The notes: generated by a model from the sequence alone, not told the origin. DNA of 64,000 bases from Candidatus Pelagibacter sp. (GCA_013823725.1 PNMQ01000004.1:33569-97568), one strand, 5' to 3'. Shown: positions 4,040 to 63,941, numbered from the stretch's first letter. Made by a program: numbers and translations.

Positions 4040-4069
4040 TGATTTTTGACCTCTCCATAATTGCGTTAT

Positions 4070-5155: not shown

Positions 5156-5290
5156 AATAGACCTTAAGCTTTAAATTTTATAGGACTCTAATATTTCCAA
5201 TATTTTAAAATTCTAAAACATTATTTCTTTAATTTAAAGCTTAAAGCGTATAAAATAGAACGATGATTCTCAATTTGGAAAAAATAATTC

Positions 5291-6175: not shown

Positions 6176-6506
6176 TAGATTTTCACTATTTAATGTTCTT
6201 TTGACATGCGTAGTCATGATTCTACTTTTTAAAATTAAAAACAATGTTGAACTTTTAGAAAGAGAACAAAAAAACCTTAAATCATCTATCAGCAAAATGC
6301 ATGACGATTTAAGAATAAAAGTAGCATCGTGGAACGTCTTAAACCACCCTACAGACCTTAAAAAACTAACTGTGAAATATTTGCCTGACTTTCAACCAAT
6401 TTCATCTGGAAATATAATTACTTTTGATGATATAATAGAAATGTCAAGGGGTCAAAATGATAACGGCGAAGATCTCGACAGTTTTATAGCCAATTTAGCA
6501 GACTAA
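6168..6506 (+). CDS. ftsL: Cell division protein FtsL-like
   Basis: 112 aa with a single N-terminal TM helix followed by a coiled coil. It overlaps the rsmH stop by 8 nt and sits between rsmH and ftsI. The ASWNVLNHPTDLKKL segment resembles alphaproteobacterial FtsL. Confidence 0.65.
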   Translation: MFNRFSLFNVLLTCVVMILLFKIKNNVELLEREQKNLKSSISKMHDDLRIKVASWNVLNHPTDLKKLTVKYLPDFQPISSGNIITFDDIIEMSRGQNDNGEDLDSFIANLAD

Positions 6507-6531
6507 TTTCAGAGGTTAACATTTTTAGCAT

Positions 6532-8268
6532 ATGCTTTCGTTTAAAGAAAAACGCGTTACAGGCCTAGGTCGTTTATTAAAAGATGCTACTAATCACGTT
6601 ACGTTTTTGGAAATGATGCGTAAGAGGGTTGCATTCCTCATTTTTTCAGGTCTATTTTTATTTTTAATCGCTATTTTTAGATTAGCTAGTCTAATGCTTT
6701 TTCAGAACTCAATCATATCTGAAAATAATTTTGATGCAAGAGAAAATAAACATATACCAAGAGCAGATATTATAGACCGCAATGGAAATGTAGTGGCAAC
6801 ACACATTGTTACCGCATCTTTGTACGCTAACCCCAAAATAATAATTGATCCCAAGAATGCCGCAAAACAGCTTTCTAAAATTTTTCCACAACTTTCATAC
6901 AAATCATTACTACAAAAACTTTCTAACACATCAAAGTCTTTCATATGGATTGCCCGACATATTCCACCAAAAACTCAGCATGAAGTTAATCTTATTGGTC
7001 AACCAGGACTTGTCCTCCAAAAGGACCATAAAAGAATGTATCCATACGGAAAACTTTTTTCTCATGTAGTAGGTTACTCTGGTCTTGACAATAACGGTCT
7101 AGCAGGAGTTGAAAAAAAATTCGATCATCATCTTAAAAATTCAGCCACACCTCTTAAGCTTAGCATTGACCTTAGAATACAAGCATCGATTGCAGAACTT
7201 GTATCACAAGCGGTAGATTTTTTCCAAGCTAAAGCTGGAAATGCAATAGTGATGGATATAAAAACAGGTGAGATTTTAGGTATGGTATCATTACCTGTTT
7301 TTGATCCTCACAATATTAATGATGCAAAACCTGAAGAACTTTTTCATATTAATACTTTAGGTGTATATGAACCAGGATCTACATGGAAAATTCTTAATAC
7401 TGCAATTGCATTAGAAACAGGTTTATCCACTCCAAATTCAAACTATGATGCAAGACATCCCATTAAAATAGGTCGTTTTACAATAACAGATTTTAAAGGA
7501 AAGAACCGATTCCTTAATCTGACTGAAGCATTTGTGTATTCATCAAACATTGCTGCAGTAAAAGTTGCCCAACAGTTTGGATCTAAAATTCAGCAAGAAT
7601 ACTTTCGTAAGTTCGGTGTGTTTAAACCATCAAATATTGAAATCCCCGAAATGGCCATGCCATTACTACCCAAAAGTTGGAAAGAATCAACATTGATGTC
7701 TGCTTCTTATGGATATGGCATCTCACTATCCCCACTGCATGCAGCAACAATCATAGGGACACTTATTAACAATGGGGAAAAAATACAACCTACTCTGATT
7801 TATAATCCCAAAAAAAACATAGCAACTACTTCCGAAAATCCAGTAATATCGAAAAAAACGTCAGCAACACTTAGAGAGATGATGAGAGCAACAACCTTGT
7901 ACGGAGGATCGAGAAAAGCAAATATTCAAGGATATTCTGTTTTTGCAAAAACAGGGACCGCATACACAAGTGTGGGGAAAAAATATAATGGAAAAGATCG
8001 ATTTAATTCCTGCATCGCAGGATTTCCATTTCATAACCCAAAGTATTTAGTTTACGTAGGCCTACATTCACCAAAAGCTTTACCAGAAACGTATTTCTAC
8101 AATGCTGCAGGCTGGAATGCAGCACCTACTGCTGGAAAAATCATTGAAAGAATTGCACCTGTTCTTAACGTTGAACCAGACGACACACCTACAACATTTA
8201 AAAATGTATCTTGGCTTGATGAAACATTAGACATACCACATAATATTGTATTGACAAACGGGCAGTAA
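6532..8268 (+). CDS. ftsI: Peptidoglycan D,D-transpeptidase FtsI (PBP3)
   Basis: N-terminal membrane anchor plus the penicillin-binding motifs SxxK (STWK), SxN (SSN) and KTG (KTGT). The dcw-cluster position fits. Confidence 0.85.
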   Translation: MLSFKEKRVTGLGRLLKDATNHVTFLEMMRKRVAFLIFSGLFLFLIAIFRLASLMLFQNSIISENNFDARENKHIPRADIIDRNGNVVATHIVTASLYANPKIIIDPKNAAKQLSKIFPQLSYKSLLQKLSNTSKSFIWIARHIPPKTQHEVNLIGQPGLVLQKDHKRMYPYGKLFSHVVGYSGLDNNGLAGVEKKFDHHLKNSATPLKLSIDLRIQASIAELVSQAVDFFQAKAGNAIVMDIKTGEILGMVSLPVFDPHNINDAKPEELFHINTLGVYEPGSTWKILNTAIALETGLSTPNSNYDARHPIKIGRFTITDFKGKNRFLNLTEAFVYSSNIAAVKVAQQFGSKIQQEYFRKFGVFKPSNIEIPEMAMPLLPKSWKESTLMSASYGYGISLSPLHAATIIGTLINNGEKIQPTLIYNPKKNIATTSENPVISKKTSATLREMMRATTLYGGSRKANIQGYSVFAKTGTAYTSVGKKYNGKDRFNSCIAGFPFHNPKYLVYVGLHSPKALPETYFYNAAGWNAAPTAGKIIERIAPVLNVEPDDTPTTFKNVSWLDETLDIPHNIVLTNGQ

Positions 8269-13062: not shown

Positions 13063-13980
13063 TTAAGAATTTGTATGGTTAATCCAATAACTATCAAATC
13101 CAGCAAGCACAGAGCCTCTTACAATTCTGGATAGCCATCCATGATAAAGCGTATGTAAAGAACCAGATCTATAAAGTTTCTGAATAAATAAAAAAGTCGT
13201 TACAGGGCTGCGTAAACTTCTTATGTTTTCTGCATGTATTTGAGCTCTTAAAGTTAATAGTGGAAAAGTAACTGACGCCTGTATTGCTGAAATTATGGGC
13301 CCCATAATGCAAGATTCAGAAAAAGTAAGATTATCTTTCTTGTTAAACAGTATCTGTTTTAAAATCCTGTTAGAGATCAAAAAAACATTCAAATGCAAAA
13401 ACGAAGATTGAAAAGTTAATAATCCACCTTGAAAAAACCACGATCTATGCCTGAAACAATCTGAAAAATCGCATCTATTATTTTGGATGAATGGAATGTC
13501 AAGCTTGCGAATATAAGCCACTTTTATACGCTCAAATGGATTAGCAAAAACGATATCAGTAGATGAAATCATAGCAGAAATAAATAATTGAGAAACCACA
13601 GGATTCTTCAAATAACTATTTTCTGGTAATTTTTTTGTCTGTAACATTAAATATTTATATAAAAAATAGGTAGACTGTGCACGTAGTGTTAATTCAACAA
13701 GATGTGTTTTCAAAATAGGCACTAAAATAGGTCGATGTACTGTTTTAATAGCCTTAAAAAGGCCACTATAGGAGTCACCCGTTACTTGTCTACCTATAGT
13801 CAGAAAATCAAACGGAAAAGATATAATAGGGCGTGTAACCGCAGGAACAGTGCTTTCTTTTACAGCTTTATAAAATAACTGAGACTGAGATATAACATTA
13901 CTTCCGTCTTTATCTACAGCGAAACCATAAGAATAAAGACAGAAAAAAATTAAATAAAATTTATATCGCATTTTGCACAA
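13063..13980 (-). CDS. Mitochondrial-carrier-family-like membrane protein (eukaryote-like)
   Basis: 305 aa. Three ~100-aa segments each contain a degenerate P-x-[DE]-x-x-[KR] carrier motif: PFDFLTIGRQ, PFERIKVAY and PLLTLRAQ. Each is followed by an aromatic/Gly segment and an even-numbered helix; the third, LYHGWLSRIVRGSVLAGFDSYW, is close to the canonical carrier consensus. Confidence 0.45.
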   Translation of the reverse strand: MCKMRYKFYLIFFCLYSYGFAVDKDGSNVISQSQLFYKAVKESTVPAVTRPIISFPFDFLTIGRQVTGDSYSGLFKAIKTVHRPILVPILKTHLVELTLRAQSTYFLYKYLMLQTKKLPENSYLKNPVVSQLFISAMISSTDIVFANPFERIKVAYIRKLDIPFIQNNRCDFSDCFRHRSWFFQGGLLTFQSSFLHLNVFLISNRILKQILFNKKDNLTFSESCIMGPIISAIQASVTFPLLTLRAQIHAENIRSLRSPVTTFLFIQKLYRSGSLHTLYHGWLSRIVRGSVLAGFDSYWINHTNS

Positions 13981-23316: not shown

Positions 23317-24729
23317 CTAACTGAATATTTCACAAGAAGCATGAGCTCTATAAATCTTTTTCCTTTGTGAAGAAGAAGCTATCCCTAAAATAGTACGATA
23401 CTTCGATACTGTTCTACGAGCAATGTCAAAGCCTTTGGTGTTTAAAAGCTCAACTAAATCTTCATCTGATAACGGTCTATCTTTTGGTTCTTCGAACACA
23501 ATATCTTTAATTGCATTTTGAATTTCTATGGAAGAATTAGCACTAGCCATATTTCCCACTAAATTGCTAAATAAACTTTTTAAATTCATGATACCTCTTG
23601 GTGTATCCAAAGTTTTCGACGTGCTAATACGACTAACCGTACTTTCGTGCAAATCTGTAAGCTGAGATACATCTTTGAGTGTCATTGGAACTAAAGGCCC
23701 CACATTACAAAAGAAATTGTTTTGAATTTTTGCAACAGCTTGAGAAACTTTTAACATCGTTATCGCACGTTTTTGCAAAGACTGAATTAACCAATTAGCA
23801 GCGTAAAATTTATCTTTTAGATAATCTAAATCATCCGACGAATTAAATTTTTTCTTTAATTCATTAAAATATGAAGAATTGACTATTACTTTGGGTAATG
23901 ATTGTGGATTTAATCGTACATCTAGATCATGATACTGATTTTTGGATATAACAATATCCGGACAACGTGTTTGAATGTCTGAAAATTGATTCTCAAAATT
24001 TCTTGCTGGATGAAAATCTAAATTTTTTAAAATCTTTAAAAATTTAATAAAATCATTTTCTTTGAAAGTGAATTGTTTGCAAACACTTGATAAATCCATT
24101 TTTTGTAATAACTTAAACGCAGCAATATAGTTTTGTATTTGTTCATCTCTATATATATTTGCATAGTAATCATCTTTTAATCTTATTTGAATTCTGAAAC
24201 TTTCATATATATCCTGCGCAAATATGCCGATAGGTTCTAAGTTTTTAAGTTTCGTTAGAACAAAATCTATGTCGTGCTCTTGATCTTTGAAAATTTCATA
24301 TGCATTTTTCCAATGTGAATTTAAAAAACCGTCTTCATTTAAATTATGAAAAAAATAAAAAGCGATTTCTTGATGTCGTTCATTATTAAACGTCTGATAT
24401 ATTTGGTGCGTAACAAAGTGATGAAATGAAAGAGGACTATTCCACAGTGGCTTTTCTGAAGTAAGACCATATTCCTGTTGAGAAGTGTTACTATGTGCGT
24501 CACCATTATTACCATAATCATCTGAAAATTTTTCTTCTTCAGATTCAGACGTTTGTGTTTTTCCTTCTTCATAAAGTTCCAATAAAGGATTTTCCATTAC
24601 TTGATTTAATACAAAATCATTCAATTCATCAGCAGAAAACTGAAGCAAATGAATAGCTTGCTGTAACCTAGTTGTTAGGACAAGCTGTGATCCTTGACGG
24701 AGTTTTAACGAAATTTCATTTCTAATCAT
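23317..24729 (-). CDS. rpoN: RNA polymerase sigma-54 factor
   Basis: Region I LRQGSQLVLTTRLQQAIHLLQ, an acidic region II, and the C-terminal RpoN box ARRTVSKYR. It follows lptB as in many proteobacteria. Confidence 0.9.
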   Translation of the reverse strand: MIRNEISLKLRQGSQLVLTTRLQQAIHLLQFSADELNDFVLNQVMENPLLELYEEGKTQTSESEEEKFSDDYGNNGDAHSNTSQQEYGLTSEKPLWNSPLSFHHFVTHQIYQTFNNERHQEIAFYFFHNLNEDGFLNSHWKNAYEIFKDQEHDIDFVLTKLKNLEPIGIFAQDIYESFRIQIRLKDDYYANIYRDEQIQNYIAAFKLLQKMDLSSVCKQFTFKENDFIKFLKILKNLDFHPARNFENQFSDIQTRCPDIVISKNQYHDLDVRLNPQSLPKVIVNSSYFNELKKKFNSSDDLDYLKDKFYAANWLIQSLQKRAITMLKVSQAVAKIQNNFFCNVGPLVPMTLKDVSQLTDLHESTVSRISTSKTLDTPRGIMNLKSLFSNLVGNMASANSSIEIQNAIKDIVFEEPKDRPLSDEDLVELLNTKGFDIARRTVSKYRTILGIASSSQRKKIYRAHASCEIFS

Positions 24730-26119: not shown

Positions 26120-27385
26120 CTACATATTCCGTCTAATCCAGGAAGTAATTTTTTTCCAAAGTGACATTTTTTTAAGCCCAAGTTGTTTCAAATCATACAA
26201 TTCCATTTCTTGCGCTGCAAATAACAGCAGTCCAGCAGTTACTGAAAAGCTTGGGTTTTGTATGATTTCTGATGTTCCGTAAATACCCATAGGATGTGAT
26301 AATCGCGTTGGAAGGCCAAACAAACTTGTAATTAATTCTTTTAAACCTTGTATCTGACTTACACCACCTGTTACGACAATTTGCCTGAATGCTGACTGAT
26401 CTAACTCCTTCGATTTGAATTTAAGCATAATCTGTTCAAGAATTTCTTCAATACGAGACCTAATAATATGAACCAAAAAACCACGTGCTATGTGCCTTGT
26501 GTGTATAGGCGCAACTTCGCCAACTTGCGATAAAACAATATTTTCTTTCTCTTCACTTTTTTGCATAAAAAGATTACCATACAAATTTTTAAGTCTTTCA
26601 GCCTGGGCAACATCTATACCTAAACCTTTTGCAATATCATGGGTGATTTGTATCCCACCTAAAGGTATGGTTGCCGTACTAGTCATGGAACCATCTTTAA
26701 ACGTTGTTACTGTTGTTTGCCCAGCACCAATATCAATATGTGTAACTCCTAACGACATTTCATCAGATAGCAGTGTAGACATTGCAGAAGCATACGGTGC
26801 AGCAATAAAACCCGCAACATCAAGATGACAACGAGAAATGCATAAACTAATATTATTAATCAATTCATTTTTTGTAGTCATAACCAAAAGTTTTGCTTCT
26901 AATTTTTGCCCCACCATTCCTTTAGGATCTGTGATCCCTGTAAGGTTATCGACAGAATAACTTAATGGAAGGATATGCAAGACATGCTGATTTAAACGCT
27001 TAAATTTTTCACTATTAAGAGTAAAAATTTTCTGCAAGTGCTCTTGTGAAATGGGGTGTTTTGATAAAGAAATTTCAGTTTTCACAACATGAGAAACAAT
27101 CCAACGACCTGGTATAGATACGTACAGCTCTCTAATATTGTGCTGAGCACTTTGTTCTGCAGCGTGAACAGCGTTTAAAATCGAATCTTCAAGATCTTCA
27201 ATATCAATGATATTGCCACCCCTTAACCCTTTTGAAAGTTGGTAGCCTATTCCTAATATTTTAATAGAAGCGTCACTCGATTGATTCATATGCTGAATCT
27301 TTCCAACAGCGCAAGATACTTTGCTGGAACCGATATCAAGTGCACCAAAAATATTTTTAGTTTCGATAACTTTTGTTTGAAACAT
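26120..27385 (-). CDS. ftsA: Cell division protein FtsA
   Basis: Actin-like ATPase blocks ALDIGSSKVSCAV, HIDIGAGQTTV and VVTGGVSQIQGL, plus a C-terminal amphipathic tail. Confidence 0.9.
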   Translation of the reverse strand: MFQTKVIETKNIFGALDIGSSKVSCAVGKIQHMNQSSDASIKILGIGYQLSKGLRGGNIIDIEDLEDSILNAVHAAEQSAQHNIRELYVSIPGRWIVSHVVKTEISLSKHPISQEHLQKIFTLNSEKFKRLNQHVLHILPLSYSVDNLTGITDPKGMVGQKLEAKLLVMTTKNELINNISLCISRCHLDVAGFIAAPYASAMSTLLSDEMSLGVTHIDIGAGQTTVTTFKDGSMTSTATIPLGGIQITHDIAKGLGIDVAQAERLKNLYGNLFMQKSEEKENIVLSQVGEVAPIHTRHIARGFLVHIIRSRIEEILEQIMLKFKSKELDQSAFRQIVVTGGVSQIQGLKELITSLFGLPTRLSHPMGIYGTSEIIQNPSFSVTAGLLLFAAQEMELYDLKQLGLKKMSLWKKITSWIRRNM

Positions 27386-28005: not shown

Positions 28006-28860
28006 ATGAGTTGGCTAGCTGATTTTGTTAAACCAAAAATACAAGCTTTAATGAAAAAAAGCTCTCTTCCAGAGAATTTGTGGACAAAATGTTCTAAATG
28101 TGAACACTTACTCTTCACCAAAGAATTAGAAGATAACCTTAATGTGTGCCATTATTGCGGCAACCACATGAGGATTGATATCGCTTTACGCTTACGATCG
28201 CTTTACGACAACGCTCTATATGAAGAATTCCCCATTTCTAAAGTTGTTCAAGATCCCTTAAAATTCAAAGATAGCAAAAAATATACTGATCGATTAAAAG
28301 AAGCAAAAAGCAAAACCCACAGAGAAGATAGCGTTATCGCAACTTTCGGACACATTAACAATGTACCCGCCGTTATAGCAGGATTTGATTTCAACTTCAT
28401 GGGAGGATCCCTAGGCATTGCAGCAGGAGAAGCCCTAGTTATTGCATCACAAAAAGCAATAGAAAAAAAATGTGGACTTATTATCATTTCAGCATCAGGT
28501 GGAGCACGCATGCAAGAAGGTGTTTTATCCCTCATGCAAATGCCAAGATCGATTATTGCTGTTGAAAAAGTCAAAGAAGCAGGTCTACCCTATATTTCCG
28601 TACTAACAGACCCTACCACAGGCGGTGTTTTAGCCTCATTTTCCATGTTAGGCGACATAGCTATAGCCGAACCCAATAGCCTAATTGGCTTTACCGGAGC
28701 AAGAGTTATAGAGGAGACAATCAGACAAAAGCTTCCAGAAGGGTTTCAAAGAGCAGAATATCTTCTTGATCACGGGATGATTGATATCATAACGCACCGA
28801 TCAGAAATGAAAAAAATATTATCCCAATTATTACAACACTGCTACAATGGGATCCGCTAA
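28006..28860 (+). CDS. accD: Acetyl-CoA carboxylase carboxyltransferase beta subunit
   Basis: N-terminal Zn ribbon CSKCEHLLF...CHYCGNH and the carboxyltransferase core FMGGSLG...SGGARMQEG. Confidence 0.9.
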   Translation: MSWLADFVKPKIQALMKKSSLPENLWTKCSKCEHLLFTKELEDNLNVCHYCGNHMRIDIALRLRSLYDNALYEEFPISKVVQDPLKFKDSKKYTDRLKEAKSKTHREDSVIATFGHINNVPAVIAGFDFNFMGGSLGIAAGEALVIASQKAIEKKCGLIIISASGGARMQEGVLSLMQMPRSIIAVEKVKEAGLPYISVLTDPTTGGVLASFSMLGDIAIAEPNSLIGFTGARVIEETIRQKLPEGFQRAEYLLDHGMIDIITHRSEMKKILSQLLQHCYNGIR

Positions 28861-29615
28861 ATTTTCAAAAAATACCTGATTTGGGATTTAAAAAAATCAC
28901 CATAATAAGTTAGAATTGAGGAAGCAATCATACTCAATACAACAAATCCAATCCATAGTTGCAGCGGCATTGTAATGAAAAACAACTGAACTTGAGGGAT
29001 GATGCGCCCCAAAAAACCCAGCGTCAACTGACTGATAAGAAATACAATCAGCAAAGGCGCTACTAATTGCAAACTAATCTGGAAAGTTTGAGCAACAATC
29101 TGAATTAAGCTCTTTGAGTATTCTCCAAAAGGAATAGAACTCATCATAGGAAACAAGACATATGTGCTAACAAAAGCATTCAGAATCAGATGATGAAGAT
29201 CCAAGCTTAAAAAAATAACAACACCAAATACGTTGAACACATTAGACAACAGCGTGCTTTCTGGCAAATTTGGGTTAAAAGAATTTGCACTAGACAATCC
29301 CATAAAATCGCTCACAAAGTGACCAACGTACTCCAAGATCATAGCTATCAACCTACTCATAGCTCCAATAAAAGAACCTATAATAAGCTCCTTAATCATT
29401 TCTTTCATAAGCAAAATAAAATGCAAATCACTGCTTGACTTTACAGATATTAAAGGCAAAATGAGAAAAGAAAAACCAAGGCTAATAAAAAGTCGAATTC
29501 TGCCAGGGATTTCTTTCTGAGACAAAAAAGGCACTAAGGAAAAAACACCCAGAACGCGACAAAAGACTAAAAAGAAATCAAAAAAGTCTTTAAGTATAAA
29601 ATGCTGATCCATCAT
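28857..29615 (-). CDS. fliR: Flagellar (type III) export apparatus protein FliR
   Basis: 252 aa polytopic membrane protein. The N-terminus FFLVFCRVLGVFSLVPFLSQKEIPGRIRL matches the FliR/SctT pattern. It sits directly after fliQ. Confidence 0.7.
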   Translation of the reverse strand: MMDQHFILKDFFDFFLVFCRVLGVFSLVPFLSQKEIPGRIRLFISLGFSFLILPLISVKSSSDLHFILLMKEMIKELIIGSFIGAMSRLIAMILEYVGHFVSDFMGLSSANSFNPNLPESTLLSNVFNVFGVVIFLSLDLHHLILNAFVSTYVLFPMMSSIPFGEYSKSLIQIVAQTFQISLQLVAPLLIVFLISQLTLGFLGRIIPQVQLFFITMPLQLWIGFVVLSMIASSILTYYGDFFKSQIRYFLKI

Positions 29616-38265: not shown

Positions 38266-39177
38266 CTATTTTTGAGTTTGAAAAAAGTCGTCGCTCATAA
38301 GATTATCAACGATGTCTTGCTTCAGAGCATTTTGAGGTAGCTGAGGGCCATACAATTTATTGCCGTCAATACTCATTTTTGGTGATGGAAAATCATTTGA
38401 TTTATCATCTTTTTTCACATACATGTAAATTTTCAAAATTATTTTATTAATATGATCAAATGTTCTTAAAACAACACGAATACGCTGACCCACAAGATCT
38501 TGAAAAGAACATGCTTCAAAAATATTGGCAATCTTAGTCTTCAACTCTTTCTGATCAACAGCTTCAATTTCACCGCACATTTTTTCCAGTGACTCCGCAC
38601 TATTCAAAATGCGATGAGTAGATTGTTCAGCAAACTGAATAACCTCTTCAAGTTCTTTAAAAGAAAAATTCAGCAGTTTAGATTCAACTTGAGGGTTATC
38701 TTCTTGAAGTAATTCAGATTTTAATTTCTTTAAAATATTTATCACTTTACAAATTTGGTTTATTTTTTCAGAACCCATATCTACTGATAAAGGATGTCCT
38801 TCATGCGAAGAATATTCAGCGAAAATTTGATTAAGCAGTAACTCAACATCATTTAAAATTTGACTGACTTTTTTTATTCTTTGCCCTGTTAAATCCTGAA
38901 ATATACAGTTCTCATAAATCTTAGTAATTGCTTCTTGTACTTTTGAAAATGAATTATTCAGTTTTGACTTTTGAAAAAATTGATTAATCTCTTCAGCATT
39001 ATCAAGAATTCGATTCGTGGCATCTACCATACTTTGAACAATAACGTCTAATTGTTCCTGAGTTTCAGAAAATATAAATAAATTATTCCGAAAACATCCC
39101 AGATCTTGTAAATCTGAACGCGCACAATCTAAATATTTTGAAAATTCTTCTAACTGGAGTATCGCTGCATGATCCAT
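38266..39177 (-). CDS. CheZ-like CheY-P phosphatase with internally duplicated catalytic hairpin
   Basis: Two copies of the CheZ active-site motif: FQDLTGQRI (aa 93-101, nt 38875-38901) and FQDLVGQRI (aa 225-233, nt 38479-38505). Each is preceded by a similar helix (ATNRILDNAEEI vs STHRILNSAESL). The C-terminal QDIVDNLMSDDFF resembles the CheY-binding tail of CheZ. It sits directly after cheY. Confidence 0.6.
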   Translation of the reverse strand: MDHAAILQLEEFSKYLDCARSDLQDLGCFRNNLFIFSETQEQLDVIVQSMVDATNRILDNAEEINQFFQKSKLNNSFSKVQEAITKIYENCIFQDLTGQRIKKVSQILNDVELLLNQIFAEYSSHEGHPLSVDMGSEKINQICKVINILKKLKSELLQEDNPQVESKLLNFSFKELEEVIQFAEQSTHRILNSAESLEKMCGEIEAVDQKELKTKIANIFEACSFQDLVGQRIRVVLRTFDHINKIILKIYMYVKKDDKSNDFPSPKMSIDGNKLYGPQLPQNALKQDIVDNLMSDDFFQTQK

Positions 39178-51491: not shown

Positions 51492-52586
51492 ATGTTTAAC
51501 AAACATGATTTTTTTACTGATAACATTTTGTCACACGATGAAATAAAACAATTATGGCTTTCTGTCTACAGAACAAAAGGCATTGGCAATGCTCTGTTTT
51601 GGAAACACTTTCAAAAATGCAAACATTTCACACACCAAATACGTACATCCGTAAATAATGAAATTGAATCGGTACAAAAATTTAATGCACATTTAGTTGC
51701 TGCATTCGAGGATCATTATCCTCAAGATTTATTTTGTTTAAATTACCCACCTCCAATCATTACAGCAAAAGGAAAACTAGAGCTTTTAGCTAATCCCATA
51801 ATAGGAATCGTCGGTGCACGAAATGCATCTTTGCCAGGAATAAAAATTGCCTTTGAAATGTCCAAATTCTTAGCACTATCAGGATTTACCATAGCATCTG
51901 GATTGGCAAGAGGAATAGATAAAGCAGCACACGAAGGTGCCATGCTAGAAGGTAATCATTCCCATCCAACCATCGCTGTGCTAGCAGGTGGGATTGATCA
52001 AATATATCCACCCGAACATCATGCTATTTATCAAAATATTTCTACCAAAGGTGTTGTTTTATCAGAAATGCCATTTGGTCAAAGCCCTATTGCATCACTT
52101 TTTCCCAGAAGAAATCATTTAATTGCAGCACTTTCAAAAGGATTAATTATTATAGAAGCAGGATTAGGATCAGGAACGATGATCACTGCTGAACAAGCGC
52201 TTGCACTAGGCAAAGATATTTTTGTAGTTCCAGGATCTATTAAAGATCCACGCTATAAAGGATCGCACAGCCTTATTAAAAATGGAGCTATTTTAATAGA
52301 TCACGCACAAGATATATTAGATTACTACCAATTGATCCCTCGAAAAAAATTGTGTCCATCTTTCACGGTTGATACGACTAATCATGATGTTGCATCACAA
52401 GAAAAAAATCCTACATCTCATGAGATACTAAAACATATCCCAGAAACAGGTATAACTCTTGAAGAACTATACCTGGACATTCAATATATGAATCTTGACA
52501 TTTCAATGATATCTGAAACTATTTCGAACTTTGAATTTGAAGGAGAAATTCATAGAGCCCAAGATGGCAAAATATATCTAAGCTAG
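51492..52586 (+). CDS. dprA: DNA-processing protein DprA (Smf)
   Basis: IGIVGARNASLPG...ASGLARGIDKAAHEGA...VLAGGIDQIYPPEH...FPRRNHLIAALS is the DprA Rossmann-like core. Confidence 0.85.
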   Translation: MFNKHDFFTDNILSHDEIKQLWLSVYRTKGIGNALFWKHFQKCKHFTHQIRTSVNNEIESVQKFNAHLVAAFEDHYPQDLFCLNYPPPIITAKGKLELLANPIIGIVGARNASLPGIKIAFEMSKFLALSGFTIASGLARGIDKAAHEGAMLEGNHSHPTIAVLAGGIDQIYPPEHHAIYQNISTKGVVLSEMPFGQSPIASLFPRRNHLIAALSKGLIIIEAGLGSGTMITAEQALALGKDIFVVPGSIKDPRYKGSHSLIKNGAILIDHAQDILDYYQLIPRKKLCPSFTVDTTNHDVASQEKNPTSHEILKHIPETGITLEELYLDIQYMNLDISMISETISNFEFEGEIHRAQDGKIYLS

Positions 52587-56534: not shown

Positions 56535-58193
56535 TTAGTTACTGGGCAAAACAATACTGACTTTGAAAAAGCTTCTTTCTTTCTTTAAGGAATGAAATTT
56601 TTTGTTTTGTGAAATATCAGCTTTTATTTTTATCAATGAAATCGCTTTTTCAGAAACCCCAATTGAAACAAACTTCTTTTTGATAATGTTGAAAATTATG
56701 TCAAATTGCCTATCCAAATCTGAAGCATAGCTGAAAAATTTTGGAGAAATCAAAAAAATTAACTCTCTTGAAACTTGACTTTTTTCTAATTGATGACTGA
56801 TAGAATAACCGATATCAAAAATATCAAAGCGATTTTTTAATGTATTGATTAATTTAGACACCATCTTAGACACATGATCACGAGGATTATATTTTTTCAA
56901 AAAAGCATCATAAACAACTGGTCTATTACTTTGCTGCTCCTTCTCAAACTGGGTTTGCATTGCATTCAATGACTGATCGATTTGCTTTATGCTACTCTGC
57001 AAAAAATAAATGTTTAAACCATCTTTAAAATTTAAATAAAGGAGAATAAAAAAGAGCATGATCGATACATAGAAAAATCCTTTGAAGATTTTTGCTATAA
57101 GTAGATTTTTTTTCAAACTAAAAATTTTGAACTGATGATGAATTAATCCTGAGAAAATCCTGTAATTTTTAATATAAAGAACAGCATCCGAAATTGAAGA
57201 ACAATTCTTAAGAACAGATAAAAAATTCCTTTTCTTCACAGCTACTTGAGTTCTCACAAATTGAATTTTATTGAAAAATTTAATAGATTCAAAACAATCA
57301 ATATCGTCAAAATTTTCGTCAAAATTGCACAAAAGCAAACAATTCTTCCACTCTTGATTTACATCTAATCTTTTTGCAAATTTTACACTAGCATCAACAT
57401 GATCTAAAATATCAGAAAATTTTTGAGGATGATCAATCTGATTTTTCTTTAAATGCAGGGTACGTATAAAATAAAAGGCACCATTCTTCATCAAATAGAT
57501 TTGCCAAACCTCAGAAGATATTCGGTTAATCAAGAAGACCCATATATCTTTTAAAGCTAGATAATCCAGCTTTAAAAGCGTACAAACTTCGCCTGCAATT
57601 TTTAAATCAAAACTTGATACAAAACTAATAGGAATACTTAAATTTTTTAATATCAAAAAATGATGGGTCAAAATTTGACTAGGATGCAAAGAAACAAATA
57701 AAAGTTGAGTATTATTTTTTGGATATTTAATGAAAAGAGGACTAATCCACTCTTGAGGAGAAAATCTGCTTTTAACCAATTGAGATGTCAGAATTTTCTT
57801 CTGAACACCCTTAATCTTCCCAAGCTTGATAAGTTGAAAATCGAGATCTTCACCTTTAAGGAAAATTTGAGTATACATATTTTTCTTATGTTTCCAAAAT
57901 TCGTTTAATTTTTGCATCATGTCAGAATGTGAACAATCATCCATTTGATATACAAATTGTTCAAGTATTTGATTGGAACGAAAGTGTGAAAATGTCATTG
58001 TATCATTTTCAATCGTGACTTCTATATTTTCAAATCTTTGAAAAAAAATAAAATTCTTGAATTGGTAGGTAAAAAAATCATACGCATCATTCAAAAAAGA
58101 ATATATTTCATTTTTGAGAAAATTTTTTTTAGGTTCTTCTGTATTTGCTAGCAGGCGAGAAGAATTAAGACCCCATTTCGTGAAAATTTTCAT
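56535..58193 (-). CDS. Bitopic membrane protein with GspL / PilM-PilN-like topology (function unproven)
   Basis: 552 aa. About 365 aa of predicted cytoplasmic domain, one TM helix (aa ~366-389, IAKIFKGFFYVSIMLFFILLYLNF), a coiled coil (QSSIKQIDQSLNAMQTQFEKEQQ) and a ~130-aa C-terminal domain. Its start overlaps the GspF-like gene by 29 nt. The call rests on topology and context only. Confidence 0.35.
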   Translation of the reverse strand: MKIFTKWGLNSSRLLANTEEPKKNFLKNEIYSFLNDAYDFFTYQFKNFIFFQRFENIEVTIENDTMTFSHFRSNQILEQFVYQMDDCSHSDMMQKLNEFWKHKKNMYTQIFLKGEDLDFQLIKLGKIKGVQKKILTSQLVKSRFSPQEWISPLFIKYPKNNTQLLFVSLHPSQILTHHFLILKNLSIPISFVSSFDLKIAGEVCTLLKLDYLALKDIWVFLINRISSEVWQIYLMKNGAFYFIRTLHLKKNQIDHPQKFSDILDHVDASVKFAKRLDVNQEWKNCLLLCNFDENFDDIDCFESIKFFNKIQFVRTQVAVKKRNFLSVLKNCSSISDAVLYIKNYRIFSGLIHHQFKIFSLKKNLLIAKIFKGFFYVSIMLFFILLYLNFKDGLNIYFLQSSIKQIDQSLNAMQTQFEKEQQSNRPVVYDAFLKKYNPRDHVSKMVSKLINTLKNRFDIFDIGYSISHQLEKSQVSRELIFLISPKFFSYASDLDRQFDIIFNIIKKKFVSIGVSEKAISLIKIKADISQNKKFHSLKKERSFFKVSIVLPSN

Positions 58194-59343
58194 AAATTGG
58201 TACTACAGTCCCTAACAATATCCACATGAGAACAATTCCCATAATAAGGAGCAAGATAGGTTGAGTCCAGAAAATAATTTTATCACTCATATTTTTTTTA
58301 AACTTTTGTTCTTGTTCGCTTATGAATTTAAGGTTCTTCTCCATGCAACCAGAAATTTCTCCCATTTTCAAAACATGCAACTGAGCCTTGTTGATTCCAG
58401 GAAAGTGTAAAAATGATGTTTTGACATCATGGCCTCTATTAAGGCTATCAATCACATAATAGATATGCCTGGAAACACGCGCATTAAAATTATCTTTAAC
58501 AATATGTAATGCCTGATTAAAATGAAACTGATTAGACAGGCAAAAGGACATTTGCCTCCAAAAATCCATCACTTCAAAACGCGCAACAATGGGTATAAAA
58601 CTTAAATTTTTCCTGCATAGAATCATAAAAAAAAATATAGATGCTACAGAATATAAGATTATTGACACGTTATCTTTTACAAACATTAAACTTTTTGTGG
58701 CCAAAGAAATTTTTGAAACAGGCACTAACTGTAAAACTGAAGGCAACACCATATCAATAGAAAAATATAAACTTACTCCTAAAATAAACAAAGTTAAAAG
58801 AGGATAAAATAGAACATTGGTTAATTTCTTTTTGCTCTCAATTTTTTCAAAATAATATTCACTAATCAATTTGAACACAACCAAGTTAGACTGTGTACTA
58901 CAAATTTGTTTCAGATTAGATACTATAAAATCATCAAAAAAATCGTTACGTTGTATGTCAAAAATATTTCGACCTTTACTTAAATGATCCAAAATTTCTT
59001 GGGTTACTATTTTTAAAATTTTATGTGAACACTGTTCTTCATAAATTTTTAAAGACTCTTGCAAATTAAGCCCTGATTCAAGAAGGTCTGCACAAGACTG
59101 AAAGAAATGAGCTTTATGATAATCTGTTATTTTTTGATGAAGCCAAACGTGCTGAATAGAAACATACTGAAATCCTTCTGCCAACAAAAATTGTTGTAGT
59201 GAAACTTTGGATTCTGACATAAACTTTTTTTTTATGCCGGTATAGTTTTTATCTAAATAAGTTGCTACAAATAAAGGCAAAATTGTCAAATCATATAAAT
59301 TAAATTTAAGGTATAAATGTTGATACATTACAAACATATTCAT
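58165..59343 (-). CDS. Type II secretion / type IV pilus platform protein family (GspF/PilC-like)
   Basis: Two T2SSF-type repeats. Repeat 1 is FFQSCADLLESGLNLQESLKI...LSKGRNI...KKKLTNVLFYPLLTLFILGVSL. Repeat 2 is FWRQMSFCLSNQFHFNQALHIV...LNRGHDVKTSF...LKMGEISGCMEKNL...IIFWTQPILLLIMGIVLMWILLGTVVPIY. Three TM helices in the canonical positions. The true start may be the internal MSESK at 59220. Confidence 0.6.
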   Translation of the reverse strand: MNMFVMYQHLYLKFNLYDLTILPLFVATYLDKNYTGIKKKFMSESKVSLQQFLLAEGFQYVSIQHVWLHQKITDYHKAHFFQSCADLLESGLNLQESLKIYEEQCSHKILKIVTQEILDHLSKGRNIFDIQRNDFFDDFIVSNLKQICSTQSNLVVFKLISEYYFEKIESKKKLTNVLFYPLLTLFILGVSLYFSIDMVLPSVLQLVPVSKISLATKSLMFVKDNVSIILYSVASIFFFMILCRKNLSFIPIVARFEVMDFWRQMSFCLSNQFHFNQALHIVKDNFNARVSRHIYYVIDSLNRGHDVKTSFLHFPGINKAQLHVLKMGEISGCMEKNLKFISEQEQKFKKNMSDKIIFWTQPILLLIMGIVLMWILLGTVVPIYENFHEMGS

Positions 59344-59374
59344 GCATCAACATTTTCTGAGTTCAGTAAATTCT

Positions 59375-59881
59375 TTAACTGGTTTGGTATCTAGCAAAGC
59401 AAAAGTAATCACCTGTTGTGGTACCATCACCGTTTTGCAAGAAAACAACTCCATTATAAGTGTTCATACCTTGGGAAAGGTCTCCATTTATATCTTTGGG
59501 AACATTTAATACAAATGAACTCCCGCGCGTAATTTTTGCTTTGAAAATTTTATTAAATGCATCGATATCCATAGCACTTGTTATAACACCTCTCCCACTA
59601 GCATTATGAGAGTGTGAACGGACAAGTGTATTGCCTTGCTTCTCGACACAAACAGAAGCTGCTTTTGGGATTGCAGGAATGGCAACTTTAGAAGCAGCAT
59701 CAAAGGCTAAATCTTTTTGCTGCCTGTTAAATTGGCTTGTACTATTCATGACTTCCGCATTATAAGTATCGCCCGCAGGTATGATTTGTGCTGTTAAAGC
59801 CATAGTATTACACATAATACCACAAAACAAAATTGGAGCATATGTAGAGGCTGAAATTAAAATTCTTTTTAAATTGTTCAT
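59375..59881 (-). CDS. Exported hypothetical protein, CFARY-tail family (paralog of 2379..3161)
   Basis: Signal peptide. The C-terminal domain SVCVEK...RSHSHN...NGVVFLQNGDGTTTGDYFCFARY aligns with the 260-aa ORF at the other end of the window. Confidence 0.55.
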   Translation of the reverse strand: MNNLKRILISASTYAPILFCGIMCNTMALTAQIIPAGDTYNAEVMNSTSQFNRQQKDLAFDAASKVAIPAIPKAASVCVEKQGNTLVRSHSHNASGRGVITSAMDIDAFNKIFKAKITRGSSFVLNVPKDINGDLSQGMNTYNGVVFLQNGDGTTTGDYFCFARYQTS

Positions 59882-59950
59882 AAAAATCCCTTATTCTTTT
59901 TTTTAATATTTAATATCAAATACTTTAAACAAAGTTAATTGTTAAAAGTA

Positions 59951-61573
59951 TTAATCATCCATTTTTTTCAATTTCGAAATATTTTCAAACAACAAAATAT
60001 CATCAATACCTATGGCATTCAATTCATCAAGCGATTGACTAAACATAGTTCCATTTCTTTTGGTTCTCTCTATAACTATTTGAGTTATTAAAAAGGAATA
60101 TTTTATAAAATTTGTTTCTGATCGACTATAATCCACAATGCAAGAAGATTTATCAAGAAGTCTCAAAGTATCAAATGCTTTTAAAATTGAAAGCTGTATG
60201 AATAGTTTTATGTTTTCTGTTATAATTTCCGAAGGCAAGGGAGAAGTTTTCAAATTGAAGTAATAGTCAAACCAGTTATTATCCAAAAAATACTGTTGTA
60301 AGTTATGAAATAAACTATTTAAAAGCTCTGATCTTTGTGTGTCTTTCTGAATTTTATCGCTTTTTAAATCTTCAACAAAGATCCTAATATCACTAAAAAT
60401 AGTATTCAATTTTATTAATGCTGAAAATTGTACAGAAGAAATATCTCCTTGAGATTTTAATTCCAAAGATTTGGCATATTTTTTCCAGTTGCTCCACTTA
60501 GATAGTAGTTCACCAAATTCTTTCTTACCGTTAATACTGACAAACTTTACTACTTCAGATGGAGTAAATCCTATTTGTACAATATATTTTTTGGCTTCAT
60601 CTAAACTATCAAAATGTATATGCACCGTTTTACGACTTACCCACGAATTTTTAGATAATGATTTTTGAACATCAGAAATTTTTGATACAAAAGAAATCTT
60701 TTTATCACGCAATAAATCATCAAATTTAAATTGTGTACTATCTTGATGAAGTGCTTTTTTTATAGCACTCAACTCATAAGTATCAAATTCTTTTTGATCC
60801 ACTGGACTACTGTATTGATGAATCATAGAAACAGCAAAAGATGGTGGCTTGGATTCCCCAAACAGTGCATACAGTTCACCGTTTATATCTGTCGTTACCA
60901 AAGTTTGTATTTCTAAATTTTCACCAAATTCAACATTAGAACCCTTACCTTCAAGTGTTGTGCTTTCTTTGAATATATTAATAGGAAGACCTGTTTTTTC
61001 ATCAAACTCTAAACTTTTAATTTTTTCCTTTCCTGATTTATCAAGATATCGTAAGCCGATTTTTACAAATCTTTTTTTCACCCTCTCGTTATTTGCATCT
61101 TTATAAAGTATTTTCTTTTTTTCTTCATCAAATGAGCGATATAGTACTTTATCTCCATTACGGTCATCATAAAAATATACTAGTCCATCAGGTAACTGAT
61201 CAGGATTCCAAAACCAAATATTATCGTAATTTATTCCTTTTAAACTCACTAATTTTTTTGCTATTTCTTGTTTTTCTAAAGACTTAAATTCTGGATCTGA
61301 TTCGATATCATTTTTATATCTAATCAATATATATTCAACAACTTCGGATCTTAAATTGCCAGATTCATACAAATTCTTACCAGGCACAGCTATTTTTTCT
61401 TTCACAGACTGTTCGGCTGGACTAGCCTTAATTTTTTCTGCCATTTGCATCTTAAGATCTTTCTTTTCATCCATGTTTATAACAGATGAATAACTCAAAT
61501 GAGAGAATAAAAATAACGAATATACTATATAAAAATATGATCTATAATTTGAAAAAATTTGTCTTGGCTTCAT
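59951..61573 (-). CDS. Exported hypothetical protein (540 aa, Lys/Glu-rich)
   Basis: N-terminal hydrophobic signal (YFYIVYSLFLFSHLSYSS). No recognisable domain and no Walker motifs. It is the first gene of the co-directional block ending in the GspF/GspL-like pair. Confidence 0.5.
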   Translation of the reverse strand: MKPRQIFSNYRSYFYIVYSLFLFSHLSYSSVINMDEKKDLKMQMAEKIKASPAEQSVKEKIAVPGKNLYESGNLRSEVVEYILIRYKNDIESDPEFKSLEKQEIAKKLVSLKGINYDNIWFWNPDQLPDGLVYFYDDRNGDKVLYRSFDEEKKKILYKDANNERVKKRFVKIGLRYLDKSGKEKIKSLEFDEKTGLPINIFKESTTLEGKGSNVEFGENLEIQTLVTTDINGELYALFGESKPPSFAVSMIHQYSSPVDQKEFDTYELSAIKKALHQDSTQFKFDDLLRDKKISFVSKISDVQKSLSKNSWVSRKTVHIHFDSLDEAKKYIVQIGFTPSEVVKFVSINGKKEFGELLSKWSNWKKYAKSLELKSQGDISSVQFSALIKLNTIFSDIRIFVEDLKSDKIQKDTQRSELLNSLFHNLQQYFLDNNWFDYYFNLKTSPLPSEIITENIKLFIQLSILKAFDTLRLLDKSSCIVDYSRSETNFIKYSFLITQIVIERTKRNGTMFSQSLDELNAIGIDDILLFENISKLKKMDD

Positions 61574-61850: not shown

Positions 61851-62855
61851 ATGAATGTGATTACTCGATCTTATAAATCTACAACCAATCTTTTTCCTTT
61901 GCTTTTGGCTATACTGACTTCCATTTTTTTATCTTCTTGTTTAAATAAATCAATTTCTCAAAAAGTATTGTTGCCCTCTAATAACCAAATTAAGGCAAAA
62001 CTTATTGAAAATATTCTTCAACAATATCAGTTATCCTACGACATCGATCAGCACTCTATTGATGAAGATTTTGTATTGCAAAAGCATAGCCTTCAAATTC
62101 CTAAAATTGTGCATGATCAATTAATTTATTTTATTAAACATCATTTACCCATTGATATTCGTATGGTCGGATTTCCATTCAAATCTGTAAATACTCAGCG
62201 CAAAGTAATTGCGCAAAGGGCCGATATGGCCGAACGCTTAAGTTTACAATATTTGCACGGTATGCTTGAGAAGATAAAAGCTGTTTATTCTCCAGGTGCT
62301 ATGCTTACAATCCTATGTGATGGAATTGCTTTTAGTGACGTTTTTCATATAAGTGATGAACACATTAAAATTTATGAAGATACTCTAAAAATATTATCCA
62401 AAGATTTGAAGGGGATAAAAATTCTATCCTCATATGATTTAGGATTAAGATCCGCATATTTTAAGAAAATCAAACATAACGCGAGATCAGTAAGTGATCA
62501 GGTTACATTAAATAGAATGGCTTTTGAGCTCAACCAAAGAAAAGATGATCATACCGTAATTACAAAAACAAAACAAATTCAGGCGTACAGTCAGCATTTT
62601 GGAATGCTTATCAAAAATAAATTTTCAAACCAAAATTACATCAAGGCTTCTGTCCATTTTCAATTTTCTACTAGTCCCAAAATAGGTTTAAAACTATCTC
62701 CAGATTCTTCTGTTACTCCATGGCATGGAACCCTTTTACAAGAATCCGATGGTCGATGGCGCATTGTACATCTTGAAGATATTAATCAAACGAAATATGT
62801 ACGAACAGGTATATACGTAAATCAATATTGGTGCGCTTTTTTCAAAGCTAAATAA
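61851..62855 (+). CDS. DIT1/PvcA (isonitrile synthase) family protein with lipoprotein signal
   Basis: MVGFPFKSVNTQRKV...ADMAERLSLQYL...VYSPGAMLTILCDGIAFSDVFHISDEHIKIYEDTL and ASVHFQ....PKIGLKL.....VTPWHGTLL...DGRWRIVH match the conserved PvcA/IsnA/DIT1 blocks (PAFPxKSxNxxKV, DxxE, Y.PGA...I.SDG.VFSD, LSIHPQ...K.GI.L...TPWHG). The N-terminus has the lipobox LSSC. Confidence 0.65.
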   Translation: MNVITRSYKSTTNLFPLLLAILTSIFLSSCLNKSISQKVLLPSNNQIKAKLIENILQQYQLSYDIDQHSIDEDFVLQKHSLQIPKIVHDQLIYFIKHHLPIDIRMVGFPFKSVNTQRKVIAQRADMAERLSLQYLHGMLEKIKAVYSPGAMLTILCDGIAFSDVFHISDEHIKIYEDTLKILSKDLKGIKILSSYDLGLRSAYFKKIKHNARSVSDQVTLNRMAFELNQRKDDHTVITKTKQIQAYSQHFGMLIKNKFSNQNYIKASVHFQFSTSPKIGLKLSPDSSVTPWHGTLLQESDGRWRIVHLEDINQTKYVRTGIYVNQYWCAFFKAK

Positions 62856-62948: not shown

Positions 62949-63941
62949 ATGAAAATCAAATCAATTCGCATAATTTTAAAAAAGTTTCTATTTGTTACAT
63001 TTACAATTTCTGCAACTTTAAATACTTACGGCACAGAAAATGTGATTAAATATCTTGAAAAGTCCAAGATTAACATTGGCGATTTATCTGAAGAAGGAAT
63101 AATCATTATATCAAAACACATAGAGAGTTTACCAAAAATTGATATCAAACAAGGTAGTGCTTTACAAGCTATCAGCTCCTATTTGAAAAAATGCATTAAA
63201 AATAAACCCAAAAGCTCAATTGAAGATTTAGTAAAAAATTCAATCGGACAGAGGGAAAGAATTCAATGTGTTATGCTTGGTTTTCCTGTAAAATCACAAA
63301 ATATGGATGAAGTTTATAATCATCAAGCAGGACTAGGTGATTTTCTAAGCTTACTAACCTTACATTATATCGCTTGCGAAATAGAAAAGGTGTATGCACC
63401 TGGAGTAACATTTAAGATTATCAGTGATTATGTTGCTCTAAAAGAAATTGTGGATCCTGAATCTGCCACTGTTTATCAAACAGGAATTCAAACATTAGCG
63501 AATTTATTCCCAGATACGATTATATATGACCTTAGTTTTCATGACATAGATTGCTTCACTATTTTTCAAGAATCGACAGCATACAACAAACGGTACTCAG
63601 AAGCTGGAAAAGGTAATTCGATTAAAATCCATGAAGCACTATTAAAATCAAAACAATTTAGCGATTATATCACTAACGAATTTAAAAACATTCCACACCT
63701 TCGATTTTCAGTACATTCCTATAAAAATGGAGAATCCAATAAATTAACTTTACCATTTTATAGCAATAAATTAGGAACACCTTGCCACCACGTTTGCTTA
63801 GTTAATTATCATTACAATAGCGCCTTCGTTAAGTATAAAAAAGTAAGCGCAGAAAGTACGATAGAATTAAAAACTCTTGATATCACAAATTTAAATAGCA
63901 TGCACATATCACTGCCATATTTTCAAGATATGAAGCCTTAG
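62949..63941 (+). CDS. DIT1/PvcA family protein, second tandem paralog, with signal peptide
   Basis: MLGFPVKSQNMDEV...LGDFLSLLTLHYI...VYAPGVTFKIISDYVALKEIVDPESATVYQTGI and LRFSVHSY....NKLTLPF....GTPCHHVCL. These are the same blocks as the upstream gene but more degenerate: the SDG Gly is replaced and TPWH becomes TPCH. The N-terminus is Sec-type. Confidence 0.55.
   Translation: MKIKSIRIILKKFLFVTFTISATLNTYGTENVIKYLEKSKINIGDLSEEGIIIISKHIESLPKIDIKQGSALQAISSYLKKCIKNKPKSSIEDLVKNSIGQRERIQCVMLGFPVKSQNMDEVYNHQAGLGDFLSLLTLHYIACEIEKVYAPGVTFKIISDYVALKEIVDPESATVYQTGIQTLANLFPDTIIYDLSFHDIDCFTIFQESTAYNKRYSEAGKGNSIKIHEALLKSKQFSDYITNEFKNIPHLRFSVHSYKNGESNKLTLPFYSNKLGTPCHHVCLVNYHYNSAFVKYKKVSAESTIELKTLDITNLNSMHISLPYFQDMKP

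Follow-up and report, generated by a model that had tools for sequence, protein, structure and literature searches.

The stretch of DNA analysed here (hereafter, the window) spans 64,000 nucleotides (nt) of a contig from Candidatus Pelagibacter sp. (GCA_013823725.1, PNMQ01000004.1:33569-97568) and carries, towards its right end, a block of four co-directional minus-strand open reading frames (ORFs), the last two of which encode proteins resembling inner-membrane platform components of type II secretion systems (T2SS) and type IV pili (T4P). In the direction of transcription, the block comprises a 540-amino-acid (aa) exported orphan (59951-61573, minus strand; with an N-terminal hydrophobic segment); a 168-aa exported protein with a Sec-type signal, a “CFARY” C-terminus and two conserved Cys (59375-59881, minus); a 392-aa polytopic protein (58165-59343, minus; longest ORF) that matches Pfam T2SSF and represents a divergent subfamily of GspF/PilC-type platforms; and a 552-aa bitopic protein (56535-58193, minus) that we call GspL-like (PilM+PilN-fusion-like) on account of its predicted fold and topology. 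Gaps of 69 nt and 31 nt separate the first three ORFs, and the start of the GspL-like gene then runs into the GspF-like gene, resulting in a 29-nt overlap; sizes, coordinates and spacing are exactly those given by the initial annotation of this DNA.

The G+C content of the block is only about 30%, the same as in the remainder of the window, so ORFs of this length are not expected by chance. One of them is probably shorter than its longest version: homologues of the 392-aa protein are 371-373 aa long and begin with MPLF, and since TTG-CCT-TTA-TTT is present at 59280 within the ORF, the TTG at 59280 is the likely start, which would give 371 aa and a gap of 94 nt to the 168-aa gene. No terminator-like site was found on the coding strand between the four genes; matches in the promoter and terminator scan were no more numerous than in shuffled sequence, and the promoter result is uninformative. 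The gene following the 552-aa ORF is a convergent ABC ATPase gene. On the other side, the window continues for only 2.4 kb beyond the block, and a public contig of identical sequence (L006) added another 10 kb on the right. PADLOC and PHROGs gave nothing for any of the four proteins, and an origin in a defence system or phage was therefore discarded.

The GspF/PilC-type protein and its GspL-like partner

Pfam T2SSF (PF00482) matches the 392-aa protein in two stretches with E=6.4e-26 (91.2 bits for a gathering cutoff of 25.2), hydropathy gives three transmembrane (TM) segments at ~178-200, 225-243, and 363-381, and a profile built from three orthologues retrieves PilC of M. xanthus from the PDB (3jc8, E=7e-10) over nearly its full length. 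The initial annotation, which had assigned this protein to the GspF/PilC family and made the name depend on a T2SSF profile match, thus holds on this point. Neither the protein nor its relatives reach the NCBIfam cutoff of any of the equivalogs GspF, PilC, HofC, ComGB or XpsF, and none of these stands out: the ComGB, GspF, HofC and PilC models span 37-83 bits on the 392-aa protein, all well under their equivalog cutoffs, with ComGB at 83 bits (cutoff 240), GspF at 63 (cutoff 424; residues 66-385 covered), and HofC and PilC at 52 each. Judging from these profile matches, the 392-aa protein is a genuine, deeply divergent platform protein of the GspF/PilC family.

Its divergence touches a position of functional interest. 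In PulF, two polar/Pro pairs conserved across GspF/PilC, Y168/P169 in TM segment 1 (TMS1) and E370/P371 in TMS3, contribute Y168 and E370 to the constriction of a proposed ion channel (Guilvout et al., PMC10790770). We aligned the 392-aa protein and its relatives with the GspF of E. coli and with P0004, a canonical GspF, both of which have Glu-Pro in TMS3. The Tyr-Pro pair of TMS1 is retained (Y180-P181), whereas TMS3 carries Gln-Pro (Q361-P362, within “WTQP”, encoded at window 58252-58263) in all eight subfamily members aligned through this segment; one further relative, L011, has WTPT at this place. The canonical set of pairs is, thus, incomplete in the 392-aa protein and, as these pairs are otherwise conserved across GspF/PilC (PMC10790770), we take the Glu-to-Gln exchange as a defining difference of the subfamily. 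Situated at the proposed constriction, it also offers a natural test of the PulF ion-channel model.

Sequence comparison was silent about the 552-aa protein. Pfam and NCBIfam gave nothing at E<=1 for it or for eight remote homologues, PDB profile searches with its family came back empty, and hhalign of the family profile against E. coli GspL returned a probability of 0.2; no GspL, PilM or PilN family match emerged from any of these searches, and the profile matches to these families that the initial annotation had proposed to look for did not materialise. Structure prediction was more telling. An AlphaFold (AF2) model based on a 4-sequence alignment was unusable (predicted local distance difference test, pLDDT, 40), whereas an 11-sequence alignment yielded a model with a pLDDT of 71.2 and a predicted template-modelling score (pTM) of 0.57, and with pLDDT values of 70-90 across most of residues 30-350. 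In this model, an N-terminal helix is followed by an actin-like cytoplasmic domain (~55-350) and a TM helix (369-387), at the position of the single hydrophobic segment seen by hydropathy; a continuous helix runs over residues 358-435, then an alpha-beta-beta-alpha-beta-beta domain over 439-549, with pLDDT values of 50-70. The bitopic architecture (cytoplasmic N-domain, one TM helix, C-part) is common to the 11 aligned homologues.

When the model was compared with the PDB using Foldseek, the first match was 3hrg, an uncharacterised actin-like protein (E=4.5e-11), followed by PilM (3jc8_Ma, E=6e-10; 5eou and 2ych, E=2e-9), FtsA (E about 1e-8), the cytoplasmic domain of EpsL (1yf5, E=5e-7), GspL complexed with GspE (4pht, E=2e-6) and PulL (5tkw, E=2e-6); all these matches have a probability of 1.0, and target-normalised TM-scores are 0.43-0.49 for the best PilM and GspL-type entries. 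As modelled, the cytoplasmic domain has the actin-like fold of PilM, FtsA and the cytoplasmic part of GspL. The C-terminal domain has the element order (H-E-E-H-E-E) of the ferredoxin-like periplasmic domains of PilN, PilO, GspL, and GspM, to which it may correspond. PulL/GspL is itself regarded as PilM fused to PilN (PMC10191384), and the fused architecture announced by the initial annotation is borne out at the level of predicted fold and topology. We therefore describe the 552-aa protein as GspL-like by modelled fold and topology, and not by sequence; its family would be a previously unrecognised GspL-like protein family for which Pfam has no model.

Five residues are invariant in the 11-sequence alignment (F99, W149, W218, R275, and F291), and no conserved Asp/Gly (DxG) phosphate-binding motif is found among these sequences; in this respect, the cytoplasmic domain looks more like the non-ATP-binding GspL than like PilM, a protein that binds ATP. 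In the structural comparison, PilM leads the named T4P/T2SS matches, just behind 3hrg, and the size of the modelled domain is close to that of PilM; in type IVa pili (T4aP), however, PilM and PilN are separate proteins, whereas they appear fused here. The cytoplasmic domain of GspL measures about 240 aa, while that of the 552-aa protein reaches about 350 aa and has an extra N-terminal helix.

Conservation of the pair in close and remote lineages

Besides the window, only three close lineages in the protein collections hold the pair: L005, a GTDB representative metagenome-assembled genome (MAG) and the sole relative found by a scan of genome collections (87-89% identity for the GspF-like protein, 72% for the GspL-like one), L001 (68% and 54%) and L004 (65% and 52%). 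All three retain both genes with the 29-nt overlap, as well as the downstream synteny (amino-acid ABC transporter, histidine-kinase-like gene, DprA, RuvA). The ratio of non-synonymous to synonymous substitution rates (dN/dS; Nei-Gojobori, window versus L005, with an unsaturated dS of about 0.6-0.7) is 0.09 for the GspF-like gene and 0.23 for the GspL-like gene, close to the 0.05-0.14 of neighbouring housekeeping genes (RuvA, 0.10; ABC ATPase, 0.10; DprA, 0.14); the 540-aa and 168-aa genes give 0.19 and 0.25, respectively.

These values bear directly on the idea, put forward in the initial annotation, that the pair is the decaying relic of a lost T2SS or T4P, with genes drifting towards pseudogenes. 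One could argue for it from the local absence of other components and from the possibility, hinted at by a protein with a Mito_carr domain described below, of a host-associated lineage with a reduced genome; independent losses of T4P and T2SS have been reported in Rickettsiales (PMC10847448). The frames are, however, intact in four lineages spanning 52-89% identity, and purifying selection on the genes of the block, at a dS of about 0.6, leads us to reject pseudogenisation. The overlap and the gene order are, moreover, conserved down to relatives at about 15-25% identity. We regard decay as essentially refuted and give it hardly any credit.

These remote relatives are few. Word-indexed protein searches found nothing beyond the four close lineages, even with the 11-sequence profile, and an exhaustive profile search of 1.84 billion representatives with the 552-aa family retrieved 9 clusters only; 8 of these are remote homologues, 236-619 aa long, which share the architecture and lack any Pfam domain. 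A metagenome scan with the GspF subfamily added two short family contigs, together with an unrelated canonical GspE-GspF locus (L015). Altogether, the pair is present in about 12 rare uncultured lineages, in which the two genes are always adjacent and usually overlapping. A T2SSF gene of 371-379 aa lies directly 5' of the GspL-like gene in every remote locus that includes upstream sequence, namely L008, L009/L010, L011 (where a contig end cuts the T2SSF gene), L012, L016/L017, and L018/L019; L007, with only 84 nt upstream, is uninformative in this respect. L009 and L018 repeat the 29-nt overlap; in L012 it amounts to 23 nt.

In the remote relatives, the operon is larger. Downstream of the pair, they encode a 200-218-aa protein with one N-proximal TM segment; a gene for a 162-169-aa protein then follows in L008, L009/L010, and L014 (it is truncated by the contig end in L011 and L018), whose product has a signal or anchor segment, a linker rich in Ser, Pro and Thr, and a C-domain rich in beta structure. 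These extra genes occupy 11554-12698 in L009, 2754-3921 in L008, 11875-12492 in L016, and 11629-12449 in L018. Neither protein has a Pfam or PDB sequence match, and hhalign gave no signal for the family profiles against E. coli GspM and GspC, nor for the L-like profile against the M-like one. By position and topology, the 200-218-aa protein could be a GspM/PilO-like candidate and the 162-169-aa protein a GspC-HR/PilP-like candidate; judged by topology, the two genes would complete a platform operon of the F-L-M-C/P type. The window lineage differs here: neither gene has a homologue at the locus or elsewhere in the 64 kb, tblastn with the 200-218-aa proteins of the remote clade retrieved nothing from the window, and no GspM/PilO-type partner gene adjoins the 552-aa gene.

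As for the bacteria that carry the pair, they appear to be alphaproteobacteria and may live in association with a host. The deposited name is “Pseudomonadota bacterium” for one relative and “uncultured Candidatus Pelagibacter sp.” for the closest one, and the neighbouring genes in L016 and L018 encode EipB-like, zf-CHCC, DUF3576, and Rick_17kDa proteins, a set that we take to be typical of Alphaproteobacteria. A review of the Holosporales mentions neither T2SS nor T4P. In L009, the module adjoins a gene (945-1967, minus) for a protein with a neurotransmitter-gated ion-channel ligand-binding domain (Neur_chan_LBD), lying between two dCache_3 proteins, and the same contig encodes a 1000-aa exported protein (3769-6771, plus) that has stretches rich in Gly, Ser and Ala and matches no domain.

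Locally missing machine parts and the probable role of the pair

The initial annotation had stressed that no ATPase, secretin, pilin or prepilin peptidase is encoded near the block, and this local absence is robust. An all-frame scan found neither a GspE-type Walker A motif nor a prepilin G/FTLxE (class III) motif in any frame of the 64-kb window or of the family loci; as a positive control, E. coli gsp was scanned in the same way and yielded GspE and four of its five pseudopilins (GspG-J), and GspE was likewise detected in L015. Most window ORFs of 120 aa or more were also compared with protein families, which revealed no secretin and no prepilin peptidase, 11 window ORFs of 126-261 aa being covered by the motif scan only. 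The 10-kb right extension holds no T2SS/T4P part (its genes encode a 569-aa unknown, LolA, PBP5, FtsH, TilS, and others), so that no complete type IV filament set (ATPase, pilins, peptidase and, in diderms, a secretin) was found in the window and this extension taken together. The absence recurs in independent lineages: no ATPase, pilin, peptidase or secretin was found in the flanks of L001, L004, L005, L009, L016, and L018/19, within the 9-10 kb available. A possible PilM candidate, the FtsA gene at 26120-27385, was set aside as a bona fide FtsA (320 bits).

How, then, should the pair be understood? We find it reasonably probable that it forms a translationally coupled F+L platform sub-operon of a divergent type IV filament machine, whose ATPase, pilins, peptidase and any secretin are encoded elsewhere. 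In such a machine, the membrane platform would consist of the polytopic GspF-like protein; the GspL-like protein would dock an extension ATPase through its modelled actin-like domain and reach periplasmic partners through its predicted periplasmic coiled coil and small domain. That the 29-nt overlap is conserved suggests that translation of the two genes is coupled, and that their products form a fixed-ratio complex. The ATPase, the pilin(s), a prepilin peptidase and any secretin that such an assembly of filaments would require are probably encoded elsewhere in the genome. Every known type IV filament system has an ATPase, a platform, a pilin and a peptidase, and in model genomes the T4aP genes lie scattered (PMC10191384); the cytoplasmic role established for GspL is to bind the N1E domain of the ATPase (PMC8134430), and T4P and T2SS genes are patchily distributed among Rickettsiales (PMC10847448).

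A dispersed type IV filament machine is not without difficulties, and several points weigh against it. None of the missing parts turned up in the 64 kb, in the 10-kb extension or in the 9-10 kb flanks of seven related loci. The platform gene usually adjoins its ATPase gene. The GspL assignment comes from one medium-confidence model, with TM-scores of 0.43-0.49 and no sequence-level support; the likeness of the C-domain comes from the order of its elements in that same model. In addition, candidate genes for GspM-like and GspC/PilP-like partners are lacking at the locus in the window lineage, and the channel Glu of canonical GspF/PilC is a Gln here, so the energetics may differ.

Some of these points invite a different view, to which we attach a rather low probability: the GspF-like and GspL-like proteins could be a truly orphan, repurposed pair working without GspE/PilB ATPase, pilins and secretin. 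The pair could be a self-standing membrane device, for example a trimer that conducts ions and has an actin-like cytoplasmic scaffold, or could serve another system for docking. No context inspected (the window with its 10 kb and the seven related loci) holds the other parts, in all lineages the platform is coupled to L and not to an ATPase, the rarity and divergence of the family are extreme, and all eight members aligned through TMS3 have Gln for the channel Glu (PMC10790770), while strong purifying selection indicates that the pair is in use. Against this, no type IV filament system without an ATPase and a pilin is known (PMC10191384), and binding of the N1E domain of the GspE ATPase is the only established cytoplasmic function of GspL (PMC8134430). 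One also has to keep in mind that only about 20-75 kb per genome was inspected, and that dispersed T2SS/T4P loci are common. A stronger version, to which we lend still less weight, would make the pair a stand-alone device derived from a type IV filament machine, with a Glu-to-Gln channel and a GspL-like arm, without ATPase, pilin or secretin, and maintained under strong selection in rare uncultured bacteria.

Comparison with known systems shows where the locus is ordinary and where it is not. With the GspF-GspL-GspM-GspC part of T2SS (Klebsiella Pul, Vibrio Eps, E. coli Gsp), it shares a T2SSF protein with three TM segments; a 552-aa protein that, as modelled, has the actin-like domain and single TM helix of GspL, followed by a helix and a small alpha/beta domain that may correspond to its periplasmic part; and, in the remote relatives, small bitopic and exported proteins in the positions of GspM and GspC. 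It differs in that there is no sequence-level match to GspL, GspM or GspC, that TMS3 of the GspF-like protein has Gln-Pro in place of Glu-Pro, and that no E, D, G-K or O genes lie nearby. In E. coli K-12, the GspE gene stands before F and five pseudopilin genes stand between F and L, whereas F and L are adjacent and overlapping here. With T4aP, the likeness lies in the order of the remote-clade operon (MN-like, O-like, P-like), which recalls pilMNOP; there is no PilQ here, and the PilC gene normally goes with pilB/pilD, not with pilM.

The Legionella lsp genes (lspDE, lspFGHIJK, lspLM, lspC, and pilD) provide a precedent for a platform gene apart from the ATPase gene in a machine distributed over several loci; there, F goes with the pseudopilin genes and L with M, whereas F is coupled directly to L here. 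The MSHA pilus (MshG with MshI-MshJ-MshK) offers a parallel in size: MshI is described as a fusion protein of the PilM/PilN type with about 480 aa, genes resembling those of PilO and PilP come after it, and the sizes resemble those of the remote-clade operon (480-620, 200-218, and 162-169 aa). The msh operon continues with the secretin gene mshL and includes the ATPase gene mshE, and no such genes were found here. The mitochondrial miT2SS (GspD, E, F, and G; PMC8134430) is likewise a pared-down system derived from T2SS; it keeps E, F, G, and D without L, M, and C, whereas the locus here has F and L without E, G, and D.

The T2SS/T4P inner-membrane platform is a known kind of system, of which the variant at this locus is not a known form; what is new in it is the GspL-like family, the T2SSF subfamily with its altered channel residue, and an F-L-coupled operon apart from the ATPase, joined in remote members by the candidate M- and C/P-like genes. 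If the missing parts are encoded elsewhere, it would be a very divergent branch of the T2SS/T4P superfamily with the platform coupled to L rather than to the ATPase; if they are truly absent, it would be the first derivative of such a filament machine to consist of the platform only. In both cases, profiles of the two families would let annotators recognise proteins now called “hypothetical”.

Exported proteins and genomic surroundings

Upstream of the pair, both the 540-aa and the 168-aa proteins have N-terminal signal-like hydrophobic segments by hydropathy, and neither has a match in Pfam, NCBIfam, PADLOC or PHROGs. At its N-terminus, the 168-aa protein has a Sec-type signal that is poorly conserved and carries an AxA-like site (ALTA/Q, ASTA/Q); a role as type IV (pseudo)pilin was considered and rejected for it, as it has this Sec-type signal and no Gly-Phe-Thr-Leu-x-Glu or class III motif. 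“CFARY” proteins form a small exported family with at least two copies in the genome: a 260-aa paralogue (31% identity over 131 aa, both Cys kept) is encoded at window 2379-3161 on the plus strand.

The initial annotation had proposed the two exported proteins as possible cargo of the platform pair, and the four genes might accordingly be one functional unit, a dedicated device for the export or assembly of the 540-aa and 168-aa proteins. All four genes run in one direction, the gaps are short and the coding strand shows no terminator-like site between them, and both proteins combine signal peptides with purifying selection. Orthologues of both genes are found upstream of the pair in L005 (540 aa, 67% identical to the 540-aa protein, and a longest ORF of 178 aa whose orthologous start gives 168 aa) and, shortened, in L004 (423 aa, 43% identical to the 540-aa protein and without its C-terminal third, and 171 aa). 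The arrangement upstream of the pair, therefore, stands in three of the four close lineages. It fails in L001, where a YkuD gene stands upstream of the conserved pair and 21 kb hold no homologue of either protein, and in the remote relatives, none of which has a 540-aa or 168-aa homologue; the paralogue of the 168-aa protein, furthermore, lies 56 kb from the 168-aa gene in an unrelated context. A dedicated export device is, in our opinion, a doubtful proposition, and the two proteins look more like lineage-specific neighbours than like demonstrated parts of a machine.

On its right, the block adjoins, as previously described, a tandem pair of exported DIT1/PvcA-like genes (isonitrile-synthase family in Pfam) on the plus strand at 61851-62855 and 62949-63941, with E=5e-39 and 2e-20. 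Their products are 27% identical to each other and both have N-terminal signal-like segments, the first with a lipobox-like LSSC; exported members of the DIT1/PvcA family seem unusual. A tblastn search of four related loci (L001, L004, L005, and L002/L003, which is short) detected no copy of this pair.

Further away, a 305-aa protein with a eukaryote-type Mito_carr domain (Pfam, E=1.4e-9) is encoded at 13063-13980 on the minus strand; proteins of this kind typically belong to bacteria that live inside host cells and draw on host metabolites, and this one hints at a host-associated lifestyle. The DprA gene lies at 51492-52586 (plus), 4 kb from the platform pair, and this synteny is kept in all four close lineages; that its proximity might hint at a role in DNA uptake is only a thought, DprA being widespread. 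Genes for a FliR-type Bac_export_1 protein (28857-29615, minus), a CheZ-like protein (38266-39177, minus) and sigma-54 (23317-24729, minus) point to a flagellated, chemotactic organism, a gene set that fits poorly with the “Candidatus Pelagibacter” label of the closest public MAG.

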